Shown: in pieces, positions 6,916 to 62,134 of the stretch
Layout: every line of letters begins with the position of its first letter
Position numbering within the stretch: position 1 is the first letter of the stretch
Assembly: GCF_044647545.1 (NCBI RefSeq)
Contig: NZ_CP172818.1
Direction: 5' to 3' (one strand)
Source of the DNA: Escherichia coli
GTDB lineage: Bacteria > Pseudomonadota > Gammaproteobacteria > Enterobacterales > Enterobacteriaceae
Length of the DNA: 64,000 bases
Made by a program: the position numbers and the translations under genes
Notes under the pieces: model-generated
The model's input: the letters and a program-made list of their open reading frames with translations, nothing else
What the model was told of the DNA's origin: nothing
Databases searched by the model: none

Positions 6916-7566
6916 ATGACCGGTTCTATGATCGTAAATAATCTGGCGGGACTGATGATGCTGACATCGCTGTTTGTGATTAGCGTCAAAAGCTATCGCC
7001 TGTCATGCGGATTTTACGCCTGCCAGTCGCTGGTGCTGGTGTCTATTTTCGCCACCCTCTCGTGCCTGTTCGTCGCAGAGCAACTGCTGATCTGGTCCGC
7101 CAGCGCCTTTATCACCAAAGTGCTGCTGGTACCGTTAATCATGATTTACGCTGCACGAAATATTCCCCAGAACATCCCGGAAAAAGCGTTATTCGGTCCG
7201 GCTATGATGGCATTGCTCGCGGCATTAATTGTCCTGCTTTGCGCATTTGTCGTTCAGCCCGTGAAGCTACCGATGGCTACCGGGCTGAAACCGGCGCTGG
7301 CGGTGGCGTTAGGTCATTTTCTGCTTGGCCTGCTGTGCATTGTCAGCCAGCGCAATATCCTGCGGCAAATTTTTGGTTACTGCCTGATGGAAAACGGCTC
7401 CCATCTGGTGCTGGCGCTTCTTGCCTGGCGTGCACCGGAACTGGTGGAAATTGGTATCGCTACCGACGCCATCTTCGCCGTCATTGTGATGGTGTTACTG
7501 GCAAGAAAAATATGGCGTACCCACGGCACGCTGGACGTGAACAACTTGACCGCGCTGAAGGGATAA
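6916..7566 (+). CDS. hyfE: Hydrogenase-4 small membrane subunit (NuoK-like)
   Basis: 216-aa hydrophobic ORF in operon context. Confidence 0.88.
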
Positions 7567-7570
7567 TGAG

Positions 7571-9151
7571 ATGAGTTATTCTGTGATGTTCGCTTTACTC
7601 CTGCTCACGCCGCTGCTTTTTTCGCTGCTCTGTTTTGCCTGCCGGAAATGGGGACACTCTGCGACTCGCACGGTGACAGTACTACATAGCTTAGGGATCA
7701 CACTGCTGCTGATTCTGACACTGTGGGTGGTCCAAACTGCCGCTGATGCGGGAGAAATATTCGCTGCGGGACTGTGGCTTCATATTGATGGTCTGGGCGG
7801 TTTGTTCCTCGCCATTCTTGGTGTGATTGGCTTTCTCACCGGTGTTTACTCGATTGGCTACATGCGTCATGAAGTGGCACACGGCGAGCTTTCACCCGTT
7901 ACGCTGTGCGATTACTACGGTTTCTTCCATCTGTTTTTGTTCACCATGCTGCTGGTTGTTACCAGCAATAACCTGATTGTGATGTGGGCGGCGATCGAAG
8001 CCACCACCTTAAGCTCGGCGTTTCTGGTAGGCATTTACGGTCAGCGTTCATCGCTGGAAGCTGCATGGAAGTACATCATTATTTGTACTGTTGGTGTCGC
8101 TTTTGGTCTGTTCGGTACCGTGCTGGTATACGCCAACGCCGCCAGCGTTATGCCGCAGGCAGAAATGGCGATATTCTGGAGCGAGGTTCTTAAGCAATCG
8201 TCCTTGCTTGACCCAACATTAATGCTGTTGGCCTTTGTGTTTGTGCTAATTGGCTTTGGCACCAAAACCGGGCTATTCCCCATGCACGCCTGGCTGCCAG
8301 ATGCTCACAGTGAAGCGCCGAGTCCGGTCAGCGCCCTGCTCTCCGCCGTATTGCTGAACTGCGCGCTATTGGTGCTGATTCGCTATTACATCATTATTTG
8401 CCAGGCCATCGGCAGCGATTTCCCCAACCGGTTGTTGCTCATCTTCGGCATGTTGTCGGTTGCCGTGGCGGCATTTTTCATTCTGGTACAGCGGGACATT
8501 AAGCGTCTGCTGGCGTACTCCAGCGTGGAGAACATGGGACTGGTCGCGGTGGCGTTAGGCATTGGCGGGCCGCTGGGAATTTTTGCCGCGCTGCTGCACA
8601 CCTTAAACCACAGTCTGGCAAAAACGCTGCTGTTCTGCGGTTCCGGCAATGTACTGCTCAAGTACGGCACGCGCGATCTCAACGTCGTCTGCGGAATGCT
8701 CAAAATCATGCCATTTACCGCCGTGCTGTTTGGCGGCGGTGCGCTGGCGCTGGCCGGGATGCCGCCCTTCAACATTTTTCTTAGCGAATTTATGACCGTT
8801 ACCGCCGGACTGGCGCGTAATCACCTGCTGATTATCGTCCTGCTGTTATTGCTGTTAACGCTGGTGCTGGCGGGCCTGGTACGGATGGCTGCGCGGGTGT
8901 TAATGGCGAAACCGCCGCAGGCCGTTAACCGGGGTGAACTTGGCTGGTTGACCACCTCGCCAATGGTGATTCTGCTGGTCATGATGCTGGCGATGGGAAC
9001 GCATATTCCACAACCTGTCATCAGGATCCTGGCGGGCGCTTCCACTATAGTCCTCTCAGGGACGCACGACCTGCCTGCACAACGTAGCACCTGGCATGAT
9101 TTTTTGCCTTCAGGCACCGCATCTGTTTCGGAGAAACACAGTGAACGTTAA
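7571..9151 (+). CDS. hyfF: Hydrogenase-4 membrane subunit, antiporter-like
   Basis: 526-aa polytopic ORF; third antiporter-like paralog in the operon. Confidence 0.9.
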
Positions 9152-10856
9152 TTCATCGTCAAATCGTGGCGAAGCGATTCTCGCCGCCCTGAAAACGCAG
9201 TTCCCCGGCGCGGTGCTGGATGAAGAGCGACAAACGCCTGAACAGGTCACCATTACGGTGAAAATCAATCTGCTGCCTGACGTTGTGCATTATCTTTATT
9301 ATCAACATGATGGCTGGCTTCCGGTCCTGTTTGGCAACGACGAGCGGACACTTAACGGTCATTACGCGGTTTATTATGCCCTTTCTATGGAAGGGGCCGA
9401 AAAATGCTGGATCGTGGTGAAGGCACTGGTCGATGCCGACAGTCGGGAGTTTCCGTCAGTCACACCGCGCGTCCCTGCCGCGGTCTGGGGCGAGCGAGAA
9501 ATTCGCGATATGTACGGGTTGATTCCGGTTGGCCAGCCGGATCAGCGTCGGCTGGTGTTGCCCGATGACTGGCCGGAAGATATGCATCCGCTGCGCAAAG
9601 ACGCGATGGATTATCGACTGCGCCCAGAACCGACGACTGATACCGAAACGTATCCGTTTATCAACGAGGGCAACAGCGATGCGCGGGTGATCCCTGTCGG
9701 CCCGCTGCATATCACCTCCGATGAACCAGGTCACTTCCGCTTGTTTGTGGATGGCGAGCAAATTGTCGATGCTGATTACCGCCTGTTTTATGTCCATCGC
9801 GGCATGGAGAAACTGGCAGAAACGCGGATGGGCTACAACGAAGTGACCTTCTTATCCGACCGCGTGTGTGGGATTTGCGGTTTTGCCCACAGTGTGGCCT
9901 ATACCAACTCGGTTGAAAATGCACTGGGGATTGAGGTGCCGCAACGAGCGCATACTATTCGCTCGATTCTGCTGGAAGTCGAACGGCTGCATAGTCATTT
10001 GCTCAACCTTGGCCTCTCCTGCCATTTTGTTGGTTTTGATACCGGCTTTATGCAATTTTTCCGCGTGCGGGAAAAGTCGATGACGATGGCGGAATTGCTG
10101 ACCGGGTCGCGTAAAACCTACGGTCTGAATCTGATTGGTGGTGTTCGCCGCGATATTCTCAAAGAGCAACGTCTGCAAACGCTGAAACTGGTGCGCGAGA
10201 TGCGCGCCGACGTGTCGGAGCTGGTAGAGATGTTGCTTGCCACGCCGAATATGGAACAACGCACTCAGGGCATTGGCATTCTCGACCGACAAATCGCCCG
10301 TGATTATAGCCCCGTAGGGCCGCTGATCCGCGGCAGTGGCTTTGCCCGTGATTTGCGCTTTGATCACCCCTACGCCGACTACGGCAATATTCCCAAAACG
10401 CTGTTTACCTTTACCGGCGGCGATGTCTTCTCCCGCGTGATGGTCCGTGTCAAAGAGACGTTTGATTCGCTGGCAATGCTGGAATTTGCCCTCGACAACA
10501 TGCCAGATACCCCACTGCTGACCGAAGGCTTTAGCTATAAACCTCACGCATTCGCGCTGGGCTTTGTTGAAGCGCCACGTGGTGAAGACGTGCACTGGAG
10601 CATGCTCGGTGATAACCAAAAATTGTTCCGCTGGCGCTGTCGTGCCGCCACCTACGCCAACTGGCCAGTGCTGCGTTACATGCTGCGCGGCAATACCGTT
10701 TCTGACGCACCGCTGATTATCGGTAGCCTTGATCCCTGTTACTCCTGTACCGACCGTGTGACGCTGGTTGATGTGCGCAAGCGCCAGTCAAAAACCGTGC
10801 CGTATAAAGAGATCGAACGCTACGGCATTGATCGTAACCGTTCGCCGCTGAAGTAA
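9141..10856 (+). CDS. hyfG: Hydrogenase-4 [NiFe] large catalytic subunit
   Basis: N-terminal NiFe ligand motif [10 protein letters not shown] and C-terminal DPCYSCTDR. Start ambiguous: GTG 9141 (overlaps hyfF stop by 11 nt) or ATG 9096. Confidence 0.9.
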
Positions 10857-23711: not shown

Positions 23712-27324
<3,613 letters not shown>

Positions 27325-27330
27325 TGCTTT

Positions 27331-27360
27331 GCGGGCCGACGAGAAATGTCGGCCCGCATT
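27331..27360. terminator. Bidirectional hairpin terminator between ppx and pdeF
   Basis: gcgggccgac-gagaaat-gtcggcccgc followed by attatt; convergent genes. Confidence 0.6.
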
Positions 27361-27362
27361 AT

Positions 27363-29606
27363 TCAGGCACTTTCGCGAATGGGTTCGATTTCATTCAGCG
27401 TATCAATTAACGGTTGCGGCTTACCAATAAGATAACCCTGCATATAATCGATCCCCAAAGAGAACACCGCCTCGCGGATCTCTTCGTTTTCAACGTACTC
27501 TGCCACTACCCGCATTTTCTTCATTCGCGCCAGGTGGCAAATCGACGCCACTATCTGATAATCCAGACTATTTGACACAATATTGCGGATAAAACTGCCG
27601 TCAATTTTAAGCAAATCGGCATTCACATTTTTAAGCCGCGCATAGCTGGCATAGCCGGTGCCGAAATCATCAATCGCAATCTGGCAGCCTAATTCCTGAA
27701 GATGCTGCAAGGTGATTTGCGCCTGCTTAACATTTGTCAGAGCATTACTTTCGGTGACTTCAAAAATAAGTTGCCACGCTTCAATTTGATATTTAGCCAG
27801 CAGCTGACTGACTTCAACGGGAAAACGAGCCTGACATACCGAGGTTGGCGACAGATTAATCGCAAAACGGTGAGCGGGCATCTTCGCTCTGTTTTCAGCC
27901 ATAAATTGCAGCGTATGCTCAATGACCCACATGTCGATACTCGACGATAAACCAAATTCGTGCGCGACCGGCAAGAAGCTGTCGGGGCTGATCAGTTCAT
28001 CATTCTCACCTTTCATGCGCAGAAGAATTTCATGGTAAACATCACCACGCATACCGGTAATCGGCTGGGCCATCAGGAAAAAATGGTTGTGTTCCAGCGC
28101 CTGCTGTAGCCGATTCATCATCGCGACTTTATCTTTCAATTCGCGTTGCAAATACATTGCCCCGCGACGCTGCATATTTTCCGGGGCGTTGGTCACGATG
28201 GAAAGCTCGGCGACCGTATTTAGCTCTCCCAGCAGCAGGTAGATATGATTCACTGGCGAGCGCACATAGCAGTAACTGACGCCAATCTGCGGTTGCATCG
28301 GCATTCCATCCCAAAAGAAACGAAATTGCTTGAGATGGCTATCCAGTGCGGTAATGCGCTCCTGGTGCGATTCTGTATTCAGTCGCAGCGCGAGATCGTT
28401 ACCCGAAAGCTGATAAACATCTTCACCCGGTTCCAGCAAGGGTGACAGCCAGTGAGAAAGTTTTTGCTTGTATTGAATCCGTAGCATGATGCCATAGTTC
28501 TTAACCAGCATTTCCATGCCAGGGATGCGTAAATAACAAAGCGCAGACCAGGGGGCATCACGCAACGCGCGATTCAGGGCGCGAACATTTGGCAGATGAA
28601 CCACCGGGTCCACATACGCAAGCCGCTGAATGCGTCTGACTACCGCTCTCTGACGGGTTGCCAGTACAGCCATATAATTGACAATAAAAGAGAATACCAG
28701 ATAACTGGAGGAGGTTATGGTCAGCTGCGTGGTATAGCCAGGATAAATGGGAATGTAATTTTGATAGCTGTGGATGCTGATCATCAACACGACCGCCCAG
28801 AGCAGCGAAATCAGCTTATAACCATAGCGCATCGCTCCCCACATCATCAGGGGCAGCAATAATGACAAGGTATAGTTGGTGCTAAAAATTGTGCTTTTTT
28901 CATTTAACGGCATGCATAACAGCAGCAGTAAAGCACCTAATGCCAGTAGCCAGAGTGCGAACTCTTTTTTGGTGACTTTGACATCAACCTGCTGTTTTAA
29001 TTGCGAATAATAACTACGTAAATAAAACGGATTTCGCACTACACGAATGATGAAGTAGCACAGCGGGACACCAATCAGATTGCCCACCAGTAAGGCCTGA
29101 TAATTGATTAAGGTCCCGAGGTTAAAAGGCATGACGCCGACCAGATTTTCTCTGCTCGCCAGTAATCCTACAAACGCAGCAAACTGGAAAAGTATCAGAA
29201 ACAGCGTTGCAGGAAACACAATCTGCCAGAATATACGCTGGGAAATTAAACGGGTATCACCATGTGAAACGTTGTTACGCCGGGGAGTAAAGACCCTGTA
29301 ACCGCCCCAACAGAGAATGATAATGATAATAAAATTAGCCGTTAATGAGAGCGTTTCGTAAAAACCCAGCTCTGCATATTTGCGGACAAAAATCCCTAAG
29401 GCGATCCCTGGCAATGCCGCCCAGCTGAAAAACATCATCATGCTGATCATCAGAGCCAGAGGCAGATAAAAGAGAAAAACCTCACCGGAAGAAATATGCG
29501 CGAAAGTATTAATGTGGGCGAAAATGGGCAAGATTAAAGAAGGCAGGAACAGCGGAAGCCCCCACCATTTATCACGTATTTTTATATAAGTTGCATTCAG
29601 TTTCAT
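27363..29606 (-). CDS. pdeF: Membrane-anchored c-di-GMP phosphodiesterase (MASE1 - degenerate GGDEF - EAL)
   Basis: 747 aa; N-terminal polytopic domain; EAL-type region with EIL variant (YHEILLRM) and downstream catalytic residues; yfgF. Confidence 0.88.
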   Translation of the reverse strand: MKLNATYIKIRDKWWGLPLFLPSLILPIFAHINTFAHISSGEVFLFYLPLALMISMMMFFSWAALPGIALGIFVRKYAELGFYETLSLTANFIIIIILCWGGYRVFTPRRNNVSHGDTRLISQRIFWQIVFPATLFLILFQFAAFVGLLASRENLVGVMPFNLGTLINYQALLVGNLIGVPLCYFIIRVVRNPFYLRSYYSQLKQQVDVKVTKKEFALWLLALGALLLLLCMPLNEKSTIFSTNYTLSLLLPLMMWGAMRYGYKLISLLWAVVLMISIHSYQNYIPIYPGYTTQLTITSSSYLVFSFIVNYMAVLATRQRAVVRRIQRLAYVDPVVHLPNVRALNRALRDAPWSALCYLRIPGMEMLVKNYGIMLRIQYKQKLSHWLSPLLEPGEDVYQLSGNDLALRLNTESHQERITALDSHLKQFRFFWDGMPMQPQIGVSYCYVRSPVNHIYLLLGELNTVAELSIVTNAPENMQRRGAMYLQRELKDKVAMMNRLQQALEHNHFFLMAQPITGMRGDVYHEILLRMKGENDELISPDSFLPVAHEFGLSSSIDMWVIEHTLQFMAENRAKMPAHRFAINLSPTSVCQARFPVEVSQLLAKYQIEAWQLIFEVTESNALTNVKQAQITLQHLQELGCQIAIDDFGTGYASYARLKNVNADLLKIDGSFIRNIVSNSLDYQIVASICHLARMKKMRVVAEYVENEEIREAVFSLGIDYMQGYLIGKPQPLIDTLNEIEPIRESA

Positions 29607-29957
29607 AGATGCTCAGCAGAATCCCCCACATCCTGAAGGAGGTGTATTCAGACAGGCATCCCACCTGACTTCGAATGATGATTATTCATCACTATAGAGA
29701 GCATTGATTCTAAGTGTCATATGAAAGTTCCAATTGATATATATCAAACAAAATAACCCTGATTAATGAATTATTACGTTTATCATGTTAATTCATCATT
29801 ATTACATCATCATTGTAAATAATTAAATTAACTTCCATAACATTAAAATATGTATCCACTGACGCTTTTTTACATAACGAAGAATTGACCATTTTGTCCT
29901 GTTGTGCCTTAATGTAAGTACCGTCCACAGCGTGGGACATACTTCAAGGAACCTTTT

Positions 29958-30149
29958 GTGAGTCAGGCAACCAGTATGCGAAAACGACACCGATTTAACA
30001 GTCGCATGACCCGTATCGTACTGCTCATCAGCTTTATCTTCTTCTTTGGCCGTTTTATCTACTCGTCCGTCGGTGCATGGCAGCACCATCAGAGCAAAAA
30101 AGAAGCTCAGCAATCCACACTCTCCGTCGAATCACCGGTACAACGTTAG
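29958..30149 (+). CDS. yfgG: Small membrane protein YfgG
   Basis: 63-aa ORF with one hydrophobic helix (IVLLISFIFFFGRFIY), flanked by AT-rich DNA. Confidence 0.7.
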   Translation: MSQATSMRKRHRFNSRMTRIVLLISFIFFFGRFIYSSVGAWQHHQSKKEAQQSTLSVESPVQR

Positions 30150-30459
30150 CGGTTACCTTCTCCACTTTCACAGGACATAACGGCACCTCGCTGTCGGATG
30201 CTTTTGCTCTTTGGGATTATCAAAGCGGCAGATATTCTTTCATCTTAAATTTTACGTCTTTGTCCTGACTGATGTTTATCCTGTTTGGCTGCGAAATAAA
30301 TATAAAATTAATACATATGTTTTAATGATGTATTTTTATAAATTATTTTCCACATGAATTTTAATAAATTTAATCTATTCCTTTATACGCAATACATTTA
30401 CTTTCCTCTTTTGATGATCTTAAATGTCTTATTTTTCGTAATGTGTATAACAAGGAATA

Positions 30460-30978
30460 GTGATGAAATTTAAAAAATGTCTTCTGCCTGTGGCAATGTT
30501 AGCGTCATTCACTCTGGCAGGATGCCAGTCAAATGCTGATGATCATGCCGCCGATGTTTATCAAACCGATCAACTGAATACCAAACAAGAAACTAAAACC
30601 GTTAATATTATTTCCATTCTTCCCGCAAAAGTTGCCGTAGACAACTCCCAAAATAAACGAAACGCACAAGCCTTCGGCGCGCTTATTGGTGCAGTCGCTG
30701 GCGGTGTAATCGGCCACAACGTGGGGTCTGGCAGCAATTCCGGAACGACGGCAGGTGCAGTTGGCGGCGGAGCTGTTGGCGCGGCAGCGGGTTCTATGGT
30801 GAATGATAAAACCTTAGTGGAAGGTGTTTCTCTAACGTATAAGGAAGGCACCAAAGTGTATACCTCCACCCAGGTGGGTAAAGAGTGCCAGTTTACGACA
30901 GGTTTAGCCGTTGTTATTACCACGACGTATAACGAAACGCGTATTCAGCCAAATACCAAATGTCCTGAAAAGAGCTAA
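30460..30978 (+). CDS. yfgH: Outer-membrane lipoprotein with glycine-zipper motif
   Basis: 172 aa; lipobox LAGCQ; Gly/Ala-rich GALIGAVAGGVIGHNVGSG... segment. Confidence 0.85.
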   Translation: MMKFKKCLLPVAMLASFTLAGCQSNADDHAADVYQTDQLNTKQETKTVNIISILPAKVAVDNSQNKRNAQAFGALIGAVAGGVIGHNVGSGSNSGTTAGAVGGGAVGAAAGSMVNDKTLVEGVSLTYKEGTKVYTSTQVGKECQFTTGLAVVITTTYNETRIQPNTKCPEKS

Positions 30979-31533: not shown

Positions 31534-31570
31534 TCGATGTAAGTAACTTCAAGCCTATAATTCTTGAAGA

Positions 31571-31603
31571 TAAAAAACCCTCTGTAGTAACAGAGGGTTT
31601 TGT
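31571..31603. terminator. Bidirectional terminator between yfgI and guaA
   Basis: aaaaaaccctctg-tagtaa-cagagggtttt hairpin with flanking A- and T-runs. Confidence 0.7.
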
Positions 31604-31627
31604 TCATTCATAGTGCAGGGATCAAAA

Positions 31628-41249: not shown

Positions 41250-41359
41250 GTTTATTCTCTTTCTGAATATAAAAATGAACCCTCAACGCTTCCCTCAATG
41301 TTTCGGGAGCCATGCGGGTTCAATCATACACGGGAAGCGAGGCGCTTCCCATCACGTTA

Positions 41360-42478
41360 TTATTTTTCAACCTGCTGAACGTCAATTCGACGCGCTTCGT
41401 CCAGCTGACTGGCTTTCGCACGAATGCGCGCTTCCAGCTGGTCGATCATATCGTTGTTGTCCAGACGGTCTTTGCGCACGCCATCTTCATAGAGGCCGCT
41501 TTTCTTGTTGCCGCCGGTGACGCCGAGTGTAGAAACCAGCGCCTCACCTGGGCCATTCACCACGCAGCCGATAATCGAAACGTCCATCGGAGTGATGATA
41601 TCTTCCAGGCGTTGCTCCAGCGCGTTAACCGTACCGATAACATCAAACTCCTGACGCGAACAGGTTGGACAGGCGATGAAGTTGATCCCGCGCGAACGGA
41701 TACGCAGCGATTTCAAAATATCGAAACCGACTTTGATCTCTTCGACCGGATCGGCCGCCAGCGATACGCGCAGCGTGTCGCCGATGCCTTCAGACAGCAG
41801 CAGACCTAAACCAATGGCGGATTTAACCGCCCCGCTGCGCGCACCACCCGCTTCGGTGATCCCCAGATGCAGCGGCTGATCGATCTGTTTTGCCAGCAAA
41901 CGATAAGACTCAACAGCGAGGAAGACGTCAGACGCTTTCACGCTGACTTTGAACTGATCGAAGTTCAGGCGATCGAGATGATCAACATGACGCATGGCGG
42001 ATTCCAGCAACGCCTGCGGCGTCGGTTCGCCATACTTTTCTTGCAGATCTTTTTCCAGCGATCCGGCGTTAACGCCAATACGGATCGGAATGTTTTTATC
42101 GCGCGCACAGTCAACCACCATGCGAATACGCTCTTCATTACCGATATTGCCAGGGTTAATACGCAGACAATCGACGCCGTATTCCGCTACTTTCAGCGCA
42201 ATGCGATAGTCGAAATGGATGTCAGCCACCAGCGGCACGTTAACCTGCTGTTTGATGAGTTTGAACGCTTCTGCCGCGTCCATCGTCGGTACGGAGACAC
42301 GGACGATATCAGCGCCAACACGTTCCAGCGCCTTGATTTGATTGACCGTTGCTTCGACGTCTGTCGTACGCGTATTGGTCATGGACTGTACGGCGATGGG
42401 AGCACCATCGCCAATCGGCACATTCCCAACGTAAATACGTGTTGATTTTCTACGTTGAATTGGAGCCTGGTTATGCAT
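41360..42478 (-). CDS. ispG: 4-hydroxy-3-methylbut-2-enyl diphosphate synthase (flavodoxin)
   Basis: 372 aa; C-terminal Fe-S Cys ligands (ACPTCSRQ). Confidence 0.94.
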
Positions 42479-54051: not shown

Positions 54052-54294
54052 ATTGCTGGTCTGTTCCCTCAATATACCAAACACCCACGACACAAACTCC
54101 TAACCTCTTTCAACAAAAAATTTCTTTATTATATCCACTGCGGCCCTTTCCGCCAACTTAAAAAATGTTCGGTAATAAAATAACCTGGCTTATTAGTCCG
54201 AATTCGGACAAATATAAACAAATCAGCTCAATATTAAAAATACTAATCGGTAAAAGATATTACTTAAACGTGTAAATTCACTTTCTTTAAACAA

Positions 54295-54325
54295 CAAAAA
54301 ACCGCCAAAATCAGGCGGTTTTTTG
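54295..54325. repeat. Second copy of the A-run/hairpin/T-run element (terminator-like)
   Basis: aaaaaaccgcc-aaaatcag-ggcggtttttt followed by gttgctggt, as after copy 1. Confidence 0.6.
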
Positions 54326-54474
54326 TTGCTGGTTTGGTTCGCGGCCTTTCCAGCAGATTGGCTTGTGTTGCATGAGCAACGCAGGTGCTTCACAGCAAAG
54401 CAATACTCGCCAGTAACTCTCTTTTTGTCAAGCGAAAGAGAGTAATCATTGTTTATTTAGCGTATTATCGACAC

Positions 54475-54780
54475 CGGCCCTTTCCGCCGTCTCGCAAACG
54501 GGCGCTGGCTTAAGGAAAGGATGTTCCATGGCCGTAAATGCAGGTGTTTCACAGCGCTTGCTATCGCGGCAATATCGCCAGTGGTGCTGTCGTGATGCGG
54601 TCTTCGCATGGACCGCACAATGAAGATACGGAGCTTTTGTATCGTACTTATTGTTTCTGGTGCGCTGTTAACCGAGGTAAATAATAACCGGAGTCTCTCC
54701 GGCAACAATTTATTGGTGGTTAACAACCTTCAGAACAGCAGGTAAGCCCGAATGCCGCCCTTTGGGGCGGCATATTTTAG
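54475..54780 (+). ncRNA. ryfA: ryfA-like small RNA / small-protein mRNA (boundaries approximate)
   Basis: -10-like TATTAT at 54463-54468; transcript would run to the terminator atgccgccc-tttg-gggcggcat + T-tract at 54752-54780; about 305 nt; position between sseA and sseB. Confidence 0.45.
54521..54595 (+). CDS. Candidate 24-aa hydrophobic small protein within the ryfA-like transcript (type-I toxin-like)
   Basis: Strong SD AAGGAAAGG directly upstream of ATG; MFHGRKCRCFTALAIAAISPVVLS*. Alternative ORF 54620..54745 (41 aa, MKIRSFCIVLIVSGALL...) has no obvious SD. Confidence 0.3.
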   Translation: MFHGRKCRCFTALAIAAISPVVLS

Positions 54781-62023: not shown

Positions 62024-62134
62024 TGCTCTATAAACTCCGTACATCACTCAATGCAAGGAACCAGGCTACCGGCTGGATGTACGACCGTGTTTACGGAGTG
62101 TTTAGCACTCCGGCCTGATTCTGAATTCTTTTTA

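Follow-up and report, generated by a model that had tools for sequence, protein, structure and literature searches.

Escherichia coli PdeF joins a MASE1 membrane domain and a complete EAL domain through a highly degenerate GGDEF-fold domain

An open reading frame in a 64,000-nucleotide stretch of Escherichia coli DNA (the window) raises the question of whether a protein with relatives among GGDEF-EAL enzymes makes c-di-GMP, degrades it, or does both, and what its GGDEF-like middle region does. The reading frame lies on the minus strand (positions 27363 to 29606, stop codon included), starts with ATG and encodes 747 amino acids. A sequence-only reading had named the product PdeF, and we found that the name is correct. 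The DNA is 100% identical to annotated pdeF in several complete E. coli genomes, and pdeF is found in 5425 of 5426 such genomes. Compared with K-12 b2503 (pdeF, also called yfgF), of which it is the orthologue, nucleotide identity is 98.6% and 744 of the 747 amino acids are identical (99.6%). The three substitutions, A209V, L699R and L715F, are at positions that vary across PdeF orthologues, and none falls on a catalytic or motif residue. L699R is four residues N-terminal of the catalytic E703; orthologues have Arg, Gln or Leu at this position. The gene order is also that of K-12, with ppk-ppx convergent with pdeF and then yfgG-yfgH-yfgI-guaA, which makes this the same gene as K-12 pdeF with the same flanking genes. 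Given this perfect match of the DNA with complete genomes in which pdeF is annotated, we take the features read from this sequence to be those of a conserved gene and not chance. Two plus-strand reading frames inside pdeF (27702 to 27950 and 28596 to 28862) are mechanical products of the frame search with nothing to support them. We concluded that the locus is the already characterized E. coli pdeF, whose architecture, SGNDL and EIL motifs, activity and FNR promoter have all been published.

The upstream region is identical to that of K-12 at 359 of 360 bp. Previous work described a class II FNR promoter for E. coli yfgF, with the FNR box at -41.5 and the -10 element TAGAAT (PMC3718329). Consistently with this, we found a perfect TTGAT-N4-ATCAA match, TTGATATATATCAA (29734 to 29747, minus strand), centered 134.5 bp upstream of the ATG, and the hexamer TAGAAT at 29707 to 29712 on the same strand; the two match the published promoter. 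This FNR box is the only perfect match in the 64-kb window. From the -41.5 spacing, transcription would start near 29699. BasR binding to and regulation of pdeF were reported in 2025. Near the promoter, a search for PmrA/BasR-type boxes (YTTAAK-N5-YTTAAK) gave just one match, with two mismatches (29762 to 29778), and matches across the window were at chance level (34 observed, 36 expected); we therefore claim no site. Downstream, the 38-bp gap between the convergent stop codons of ppx and pdeF holds a GC-rich hairpin with an 11-bp stem and a 7-nt loop (27330 to 27358), found by RNA folding (-24 kcal/mol; z = -4.9 compared with shuffled sequences). A consensus terminator scan 3' of pdeF called none, and the hairpin has no strong T-tract. 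We infer that it is probably a terminator shared by ppx and pdeF.

The sequence-only reading had proposed a large polytopic N-terminal domain, an unrecognizable GGDEF motif and an EAL domain, and had set a Pfam search for MASE1, GGDEF and EAL as a check. That search found MASE1 and EAL and no intact GGDEF active site. MASE1 (PF05231) spans residues 15 to 320 (28647 to 29564, minus strand), with an E value of 1.5e-70 and 238.1 bits against a cutoff of 29.8; the match covers the full model length, 1 to 299. Hydropathy and the AlphaFold model both give about 9 to 10 hydrophobic or helical segments in the N terminus. In the model MASE1 is a helical bundle, the last helix of which (residues 291 to 330) extends into the cytoplasm.

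The EAL domain (PF00563) spans residues 498 to 730 (27417 to 28115, minus strand), with an E value of 7e-71 and 238.7 bits against a gathering score of 31.3. Its model superposes on solved EAL domains with TM scores of 0.86 to 0.91 and an rmsd of about 2 Å. Another proposed check, a motif alignment, showed all of the catalytic Glu and Asp residues to be present. The catalytic and metal-binding set is complete: E526, R530, N584, E616/E619, D646/D647, K667, E703/E706 and Q723. Spurbeck 2012 (Table 1, PMC3484386) also gives this same complete set for YfgF. These residues and loop 6 align with those of the active phosphodiesterases RbdA, MucR and MorA, and in an alignment of 40 orthologues they are invariant in 39. 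Loop 6, DFG(T/A)GYSS, reads DFGTGYAS at residues 647 to 654, with one conservative Ser-to-Ala change that is kept in orthologues.

The EAL signature had been called an EIL variant. The motif itself is as described: YHEILLRM is at residues 524 to 531 (28014 to 28037), and the signature residues E526-I527-L528, with E526 the catalytic Glu, are encoded at 28023 to 28031 on the minus strand. However, the middle residue of E-x-L is a variable hydrophobic one, Ile in 32 and Val in 8 of the 40 orthologues and Leu or Ala in RbdA, MucR and MorA. EIL is also found in PdeA/YfeA and in a canonical PAS-GGDEF-EAL protein (P0217). Judging from these alignments, EIL is merely a tolerated E-x-L variant and no meaningful deviation.

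Published biochemistry agrees with a complete EAL site. In the passages of PMC3718329, PMC12419081 and PMC3484386 that cite Lacey 2010, K-12 PdeF has phosphodiesterase activity and no diguanylate cyclase activity in vitro, and PMC8861645 cites the same work for in vitro hydrolysis of c-di-GMP to pGpG. Inhibition of PdeF by pGpG has been reported in the literature, and a Salmonella YfgF E526A variant lacks phosphodiesterase activity (PMC3718329). PMC6510439 is a further paper in support of the overall reading of PdeF.

The region between MASE1 and EAL (residues 321 to 497; 28116 to 28646, minus strand) is harder to place. Pfam GGDEF (PF00990) did not match at E ≤ 1 with the whole of PdeF or at E ≤ 10 with residues 321 to 497 alone, none of the 120 listed orthologues had a match, and a PDB sequence search with residues 321 to 497 alone gave nothing significant. 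In a search of 1.84 billion proteins, a profile of this domain family found only 97 representative clusters, nearly all of them of MASE1-X-EAL proteins. By these results alone the region could be a mere linker or a domain unrelated to GGDEF, a reading that we give practically no credence. AlphaFold models the domain at pLDDT values of 75 to 94, and in a Foldseek search of the PDB the best 50 matches were all GGDEF domains (E = 2e-6 to 2e-4). Comparison of the domain with canonical GGDEF by hhalign gave 98.2% probability (E = 3e-14, 121 columns), and the family profile reaches the Pfam-positive GGDEF proteins P0195, P0199, P0201 and P0217. In the AlphaFold models the order of secondary-structure elements is that of GGDEF domains. 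The Foldseek and hhalign results refute a linker or unrelated domain. Fold search, profile-profile comparison and transitive profile matches all show that residues 321 to 497 are a very diverged GGDEF fold (core fold, about residues 333 to 472), as the degenerate GGDEF of the sequence-only reading had implied. For the model of the entire PdeF protein, the closest structures are those of the tandem GGDEF-EAL proteins RbdA, DosP, MorA and PA0575. Lacey 2010 reportedly found GGDEF-dependent dimerization of YfgF.

The position of the GG(D/E)EF hairpin is occupied by SGNDL (residues 401 to 405; 28392 to 28406, minus strand), placed there by the RbdA and MorA alignments and by hhalign; it lies on the β2-β3 hairpin of the AlphaFold model. 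SGNDL is also the YfgF motif in Table 1 of Spurbeck 2012 (PMC3484386). Orthologues read [STA]-G-x-[DE]-[LM] here. The residue map of this domain comes from alignments at 7 to 23% identity. In it we compared the sites of the Mg2+-binding Asp and the guanine-binding Asn and Asp of canonical GGDEF domains (PleD D327, N335 and D344); they are replaced by R360, V368 and I377, respectively. The Arg before GG is Q399, P362 likewise replaces a canonical residue, and the I-site RxxD has become E392-P-G-E395 (EPGE), of which the first position varies in orthologues. Column 368 is Gly, Val or Ile in orthologues, and I377 is an invariant Ile; the Mg2+- and guanine-site columns are noncanonical in all 40 orthologues, and the Arg column and the motif likewise stay noncanonical across them. 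Helix α4, which carries phosphate-binding Lys/Arg in canonical GGDEF domains, is mapped unreliably: hhalign ended before it, and neither candidate register in the gapped phmmer alignment has a Lys or Arg. Given the low identities and this gap in the map, nucleotide binding of a noncanonical kind keeps a slight probability. As the residues that bind Mg2+ and guanine and those of the I-site have all been substituted, cyclase activity is ruled out, and the domain is a highly degenerate, catalytically dead one.

This bears on the view of PdeF as a bifunctional diguanylate cyclase/phosphodiesterase, a name given to orthologues in many database records. Citrobacter orthologues carry exactly this label, and in CFT073 an exogenous diguanylate cyclase and an exogenous phosphodiesterase both complemented phenotypes of a yfgF mutant in some assays (PMC3484386). 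The protein, however, lacks a GG(D/E)EF motif, the Mg2+-binding Asp and the guanine-binding residues, Pfam finds GGDEF in none of the 120 orthologues listed, and K-12 PdeF is cited as lacking cyclase activity in vitro. We consider a bifunctional PdeF next to impossible. The phosphodiesterase rather than cyclase activity predicted by the sequence-only reading is borne out by the complete EAL set, the destroyed GGDEF site and the published K-12 activity as cited.

A cyclase-dead GGDEF domain could still bind GTP and activate EAL allosterically, in the manner of Caulobacter PdeA (CC3396) or Pseudomonas RbdA. Part of this idea holds. The GGDEF domain of PdeF is described in PMC12419081 as enhancing phosphodiesterase activity at physiological Mg2+, which fits a regulatory or structural role. 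P. aeruginosa RbdA (PA0861; PAS-GGDEF-EAL) is the best match to the cytoplasmic module of PdeF both in sequence (EAL and tandem module, E = 8e-49) and in structure, and its GGDEF domain was crystallized with GTP (5xgd). Both proteins have F-x-W-x-x-x-P after GGDEF helix α3. RbdA, however, has kept the canonical GGDEF motif together with its GTP-binding site, whereas PdeF has lost all mapped GTP contacts; the two also differ in their sensors, PAS in RbdA and MASE1 in PdeF. In CC3396 (GEDEF), as in PdeF, an inactive GGDEF domain precedes an active EAL domain and modulates its activity, and CC3396 retains GTP binding, as Christen et al. reportedly showed in 2005. The middle domain of PdeF is far more diverged than that of CC3396, and its residues for contact with guanine, Mg2+ and phosphate are missing, the last judged from the unreliable mapping of α4. 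GTP-sensing degenerate domains such as GEDEF stay recognizable as GGDEF, whereas the domain of PdeF scores nothing against Pfam GGDEF, and of the canonical GTP and Mg2+ contacts, all those with a mappable position in it are substituted (R360, V368, I377, Q399 and SGNDL). Moreover, the reported enhancement is linked to Mg2+, and the PdeF passages of PMC3718329 and PMC12419081 do not mention GTP dependence. These mapped replacements argue against GTP binding, and we regard GTP sensing by PdeF as very unlikely.

The domain has nevertheless been kept. With 70% mean identity (58% for MASE1) and 52 invariant columns, the alignment indicates that it is under purifying selection. Its invariant motifs are DPxxHxPNxRAL, WSxLC, NYGxxLRIxYKQ, FRFxWD, SYCYVRSPVxH and TNxPE, several of which lie in or close to what was once the active site. 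The PdeF/PdeA-type middle domain forms a small, sharply separated subfamily. It is conceivable, though we think it unlikely, that this domain has a newly acquired, undescribed function beyond that of a dead GGDEF relic. It might, for example, bind another small ligand or a partner, or serve as a relay dedicated to coupling the MASE1 helix to EAL.

The PdeA in question is E. coli PdeA/YfeA, a paralogue described as "structurally highly related" to PdeF (PMC5635695). Like PdeF, it combines MASE1, a degenerate GGDEF domain and an EAL domain with EIL(R) and a complete residue set (Spurbeck 2012, Table 1, PMC3484386). Its GGDEF remnant is PGSEL instead of SGNDL. Unlike PdeF, it is expressed aerobically and is not FNR induced, and the effect of PdeF on aspartate chemotaxis is not reproduced with it (PMC3718329, PMC5635695).

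That chemotaxis effect raises the possibility that the main role of PdeF is c-di-GMP independent and exerted through MASE1, by modulation of aspartate taxis or utilization upon an anaerobic-to-aerobic shift, with phosphodiesterase activity secondary. In Lacey 2013 (PMC3718329), the effect remained in a Salmonella strain devoid of all GGDEF proteins and also with E526A. It required a Lys-Lys-Glu (KKE) motif in a cytoplasmic MASE1 loop (section 4.4), which is present in PdeF of the window at residues 213 to 215 (28962 to 28970, minus strand). However, it was seen only under sustained ectopic expression, and conservation of the KKE motif is poor at both Lys, with E215 alone invariant in the 40 orthologues. 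The EAL catalytic residues, in contrast, are strictly conserved, and phosphodiesterase-dependent pdeF phenotypes are documented (PMC3484386, PMC12419081). We therefore doubt that this is the main role, while keeping it in view; the MASE1 role adds to that of the enzyme, and both are compatible.

All of these data taken together suggest, with high confidence, that PdeF is an inner-membrane c-di-GMP-specific phosphodiesterase with a MASE1 anchor, a cyclase-dead GGDEF-fold activating module, an intact EAL domain and a class II FNR promoter. According to this model, the MASE1 helical bundle would anchor PdeF in the inner membrane and probably sense a signal. Its last helix, running into the cytoplasm, would lead to the GGDEF-fold domain, and the signal may pass from MASE1 to EAL by way of this long helix and then the GGDEF-like domain. 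Having lost its GTP-binding and cyclase residues, the GGDEF-fold domain would serve as a conserved structural and activating module for the EAL domain, the complete metal-binding site of which would hydrolyze c-di-GMP to pGpG. With a class II FNR promoter in control of the gene, PdeF would be made mainly without oxygen. Anaerobically made PdeF would then lower c-di-GMP and so affect motility, cell surface properties, adhesion and peroxide tolerance, the phenotypes known from the literature.

As a discovery this matters little, and it confirms the annotation of pdeF. For a GTP-sensing GGDEF domain in PdeF, the required residues are missing, and for its orthologues the database label "bifunctional diguanylate cyclase/phosphodiesterase" is unjustified at the residue level.

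The ORF list gave pdeF (yfgF) as an ATG-started, 747-codon minus-strand ORF (27363..29606), the extent and name assigned in the sequence-only reading, and the name is right: PdeF differs from K-12 MG1655 b2503 at 3 of 747 residues (A209V, L699R, and L715F), and the 360 bp upstream of the gene differ by one base. Published K-12 work is therefore valid for the present allele. We found a match to the 3.5-kb query around pdeF in 5425 of 5426 complete E. coli genomes, and several complete chromosomes were 100% identical to it and label the gene "pdeF: cyclic-guanylate-specific phosphodiesterase PdeF." L699R (codon 699, 27510-27512) lies four residues N-terminal of the catalytic Glu E703; because orthologues have Q, L, or R at this position, the change from K-12 is probably neutral.

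Downstream, ppx (25783..27324), preceded by ppk, is convergent with pdeF; upstream, on the opposite strand, lie yfgG, yfgH, yfgI, and then guaA. At 31534-31627, guaA directly follows yfgI, as in K-12. Strain FDAARGOS_497 matches the window at 100% identity over 27000-30500; there, the genes directly after yfgI are those of a prophage lysis set (holins, a GH19 endolysin, and DUF2514; 7535-9501 of database locus L001). Because FDAARGOS_497 differs there from the window and K-12, we concluded that prophages insert at the yfgI-guaA junction in some strains. Rfam matches above the gathering score at 41269-41360 (-), 54138-54338 (+), 54474-54778 (+), and 62025-62134 (-) are the sRNAs sroE, IS128, and ryfA and the iscRS stability element.

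Pfam matched MASE1 at residues 15-320 (E=1.5e-70, model covered over its full length) and EAL at residues 498-730 (E=7e-71) and found no third domain in whole PdeF, even at E≤1. Residues 321-497 alone matched no Pfam family at E≤10 and nothing significant among PDB sequences, where the best GGDEF-containing match was MorA (E=1.3). Precomputed PF00990 matches were found in 0 of the 120 orthologues listed. NCBIfam gave only sub-threshold similarity to other GGDEF-EAL phosphodiesterases (DibA, PRK10060, and DosP among them); the alignments start at about residues 287-317, far ahead of the EAL domain.

Three independent lines (fold, profile-profile comparison, and transitive matches) show that residues 321-497 are a GGDEF-fold domain. 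An AlphaFold model of this region, built from 25 orthologues, has the order beta1-alpha1-alpha2-beta2-hairpin-beta3-alpha3-beta-beta-alpha4. Its pLDDT was 75 overall and 80-93 for the core; the region scored 87-94 when PdeF was modelled at full length. The best 50 Foldseek matches in the PDB were all GGDEF domains, including DosC, RbdA, PleD, DgcZ, YfiN, and FimX (E 2e-6 to 2e-4, TM 0.5-0.63, identity 7-18%). Profile-profile comparison of the orthologue alignment with four canonical GGDEF domains gave 98.2% probability (E=3e-14, 121 columns). An exhaustive HMMER profile search with residues 321-497 against 1.84 billion representatives recovered 97 proteins (E≤0.001); among the distant matches, Pfam recognised the homologues P0195 and P0199 weakly and P0201 and P0217 strongly as GGDEF. 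The whole PdeF model best matched the tandem GGDEF-EAL structures RbdA, DosP, MorA, and PA0575 (for PA0575, TM 0.71, rmsd 4.9 Å, 424 columns). The full-length model shows the final MASE1 helix (291-330) extending unbroken into the cytoplasm and stopping just ahead of the invariant DPVVHLPN motif that starts the GGDEF-like domain. The proposed MASE1/degenerate GGDEF/EAL architecture is thus correct, with Pfam evidence for MASE1 and EAL and fold and profile evidence for GGDEF. The KKE motif at residues 213-215, on which c-di-GMP-independent MASE1 function depends (Lacey 2013, PMC3718329), is found in the present PdeF.

We mapped the former cyclase site by phmmer and hhalign alignments, which were concordant. 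In the "DxD-FK" segment, R360 stands in place of the Mg2+-binding Asp and P362 in place of the second Asp; V368 and I377 take the places of the guanine-binding Asn and Asp, and Q399 that of the Arg before GG; GG(D/E)EF reads S401-G-N-D-L405; and the RxxD I-site position is E392-P-G-E395. We take the mapped positions to be equivalent to PleD D327, N335, D344, R366, and R359-D362. None was canonical in any of 40 orthologues, whose columns read R/H/S/C; P; G/V/I; I; Q/H/L/M; and [S/T/A]-G-x-[D/E]-[L/M]. Remoter family members (A3 alignment) have PGYDL, PGHDL, SGASL, EGPSF, TGNQL, and others. Because canonical residues are absent across orthologues and distant members alike, the loss is old and fixed. 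At the residue level, cyclase activity is excluded. In canonical GGDEF domains, helix alpha4 bears a phosphate-binding Lys/Arg. GTP binding by the degenerate domain, which had been suggested, is the one part of the earlier interpretation that we do not support: the canonical GTP/Mg2+ positions are all replaced in the mapped part, and canonical binding is very unlikely, with the alpha4 alignment being unreliable.

The EAL domain is CATALYTICALLY complete by residue-by-residue alignment to RbdA/PA0861, MucR, and MorA, active phosphodiesterases with solved structures. The conserved set comprises E526 and R530 (EILLR), N584 (AINLS), E616 and E619 (FEVTE), D646 and D647 followed by loop 6 FGTGYAS, K667 (LKID), E703 and E706 (AEYVE), and Q723 (MQGY), and it is invariant in 40 non-redundant orthologues (at least 58% overall identity) bar one aberrant sequence. 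The modelled domain (full-length AlphaFold model) superimposes on solved EAL domains with TM 0.86-0.91 and ~2 Å rmsd. The predicted phosphodiesterase activity is correct. Spurbeck 2012 (PMC3484386) describes YfgF as a phosphodiesterase verified by experiment, and an E526A variant is reported as inactive (Lacey 2013, PMC3718329). The signature YHEILLRM (residues 524-531) had been singled out for its EIL. Of the 40 orthologues, 32 have Ile and 8 have Val as the middle residue; RbdA, MucR, and MorA have Leu or Ala; E. coli PdeA/YfeA (PMC3484386) and P0217, a canonical PAS-GGDEF-EAL protein, also have EIL. Since this residue varies and EIL occurs elsewhere, EIL is an ordinary variant without functional implication. 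In some distant MASE1-degenerate GGDEF-EAL relatives (P0127, P0130, P0135, P0137, and P0138 in A3), EAL catalytic residues are also missing, as in YYAISLQM, QVSLRL, ALSGIDFVHAG, and VARGVDS. Both domains of these proteins are probably enzymatically dead, and the proteins may be receptors or scaffolds.

The FNR box TTGATATATATCAA at 29734-29747 is the sole perfect TTGAT-N4-ATCAA match in the 64-kb window, and a TAGAAT hexamer lies downstream at 29707-29712. Both belong to the published class II FNR promoter of E. coli yfgF, with the box at -41.5 (PMC3718329). From this spacing, transcription would start near 29699, with a leader of ~93 nt. PdeF is undetectable in K-12 under aerobic conditions (PMC5635695), and a 2025 study reports that BasR binds the pdeF promoter (PMC12419081). 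A PmrA/BasR-like direct repeat CGTAATAATTCATTAAT (29762-29778, minus strand, 2 mismatches) lies a short way upstream of this box; it is a weak candidate only, and such matches occur at chance frequency within the window. The AT-rich pdeF-yfgG intergenic region (GC 0.37) also holds a 50-codon ORF MSHAVDGTYIKAQQDKMVNSSLCKKASVDTYFNVMEVNLIIYNDDVIMMN (29788-29940, minus strand), a putative small protein whose ORF ends 41 bp before the FNR box; PGAP annotates it in FDAARGOS_497 as hypothetical protein WP_000017552.1, and K-12 has no such annotation. The stop codons of ppx and pdeF are 38 bp apart, and this gap contains a GC-rich hairpin with a perfect 11-bp stem (27330-27358; -24 kcal/mol, z=-4.9). 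A consensus terminator scan missed it, but it is a likely and plausibly bidirectional terminator for the two convergent genes.

Spurbeck 2012 (Table 1, PMC3484386) lists yfgF with "SGNDL," "EILR," and the whole EAL residue string, PMC6510439 gives "MASE1-GGDEF(deg)-EAL," and PMC8861645 cites pGpG product inhibition. Because motifs, activity, and architecture are in these papers, all parts of the original finding were already published. The pdeF observation is confirmed as a known feature; its interpretation stands for identity, architecture, and phosphodiesterase activity and is not supported for GTP binding, and EIL is no meaningful variant.

Mean orthologue identity to PdeF was 70% for the middle domain, 58% for MASE1, and 77% for EAL, and 52 of 177 middle-domain columns were invariant (25-sequence alignment). 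The middle domain is strongly conserved and narrowly distributed, and it is not decaying. We infer that it persists as a structural relay, and as an activating module, between sensor and enzyme. According to PMC12419081, citing Lacey 2010, the GGDEF domain raises YfgF phosphodiesterase activity at physiological Mg2+. Our inference is consistent with this published enhancement. The domain is reportedly also required for dimerisation. Ordinary GGDEF domains are extremely abundant, yet the PdeF-type middle-domain family is very small, and its 97 members are a measure of how isolated this subfamily has become.
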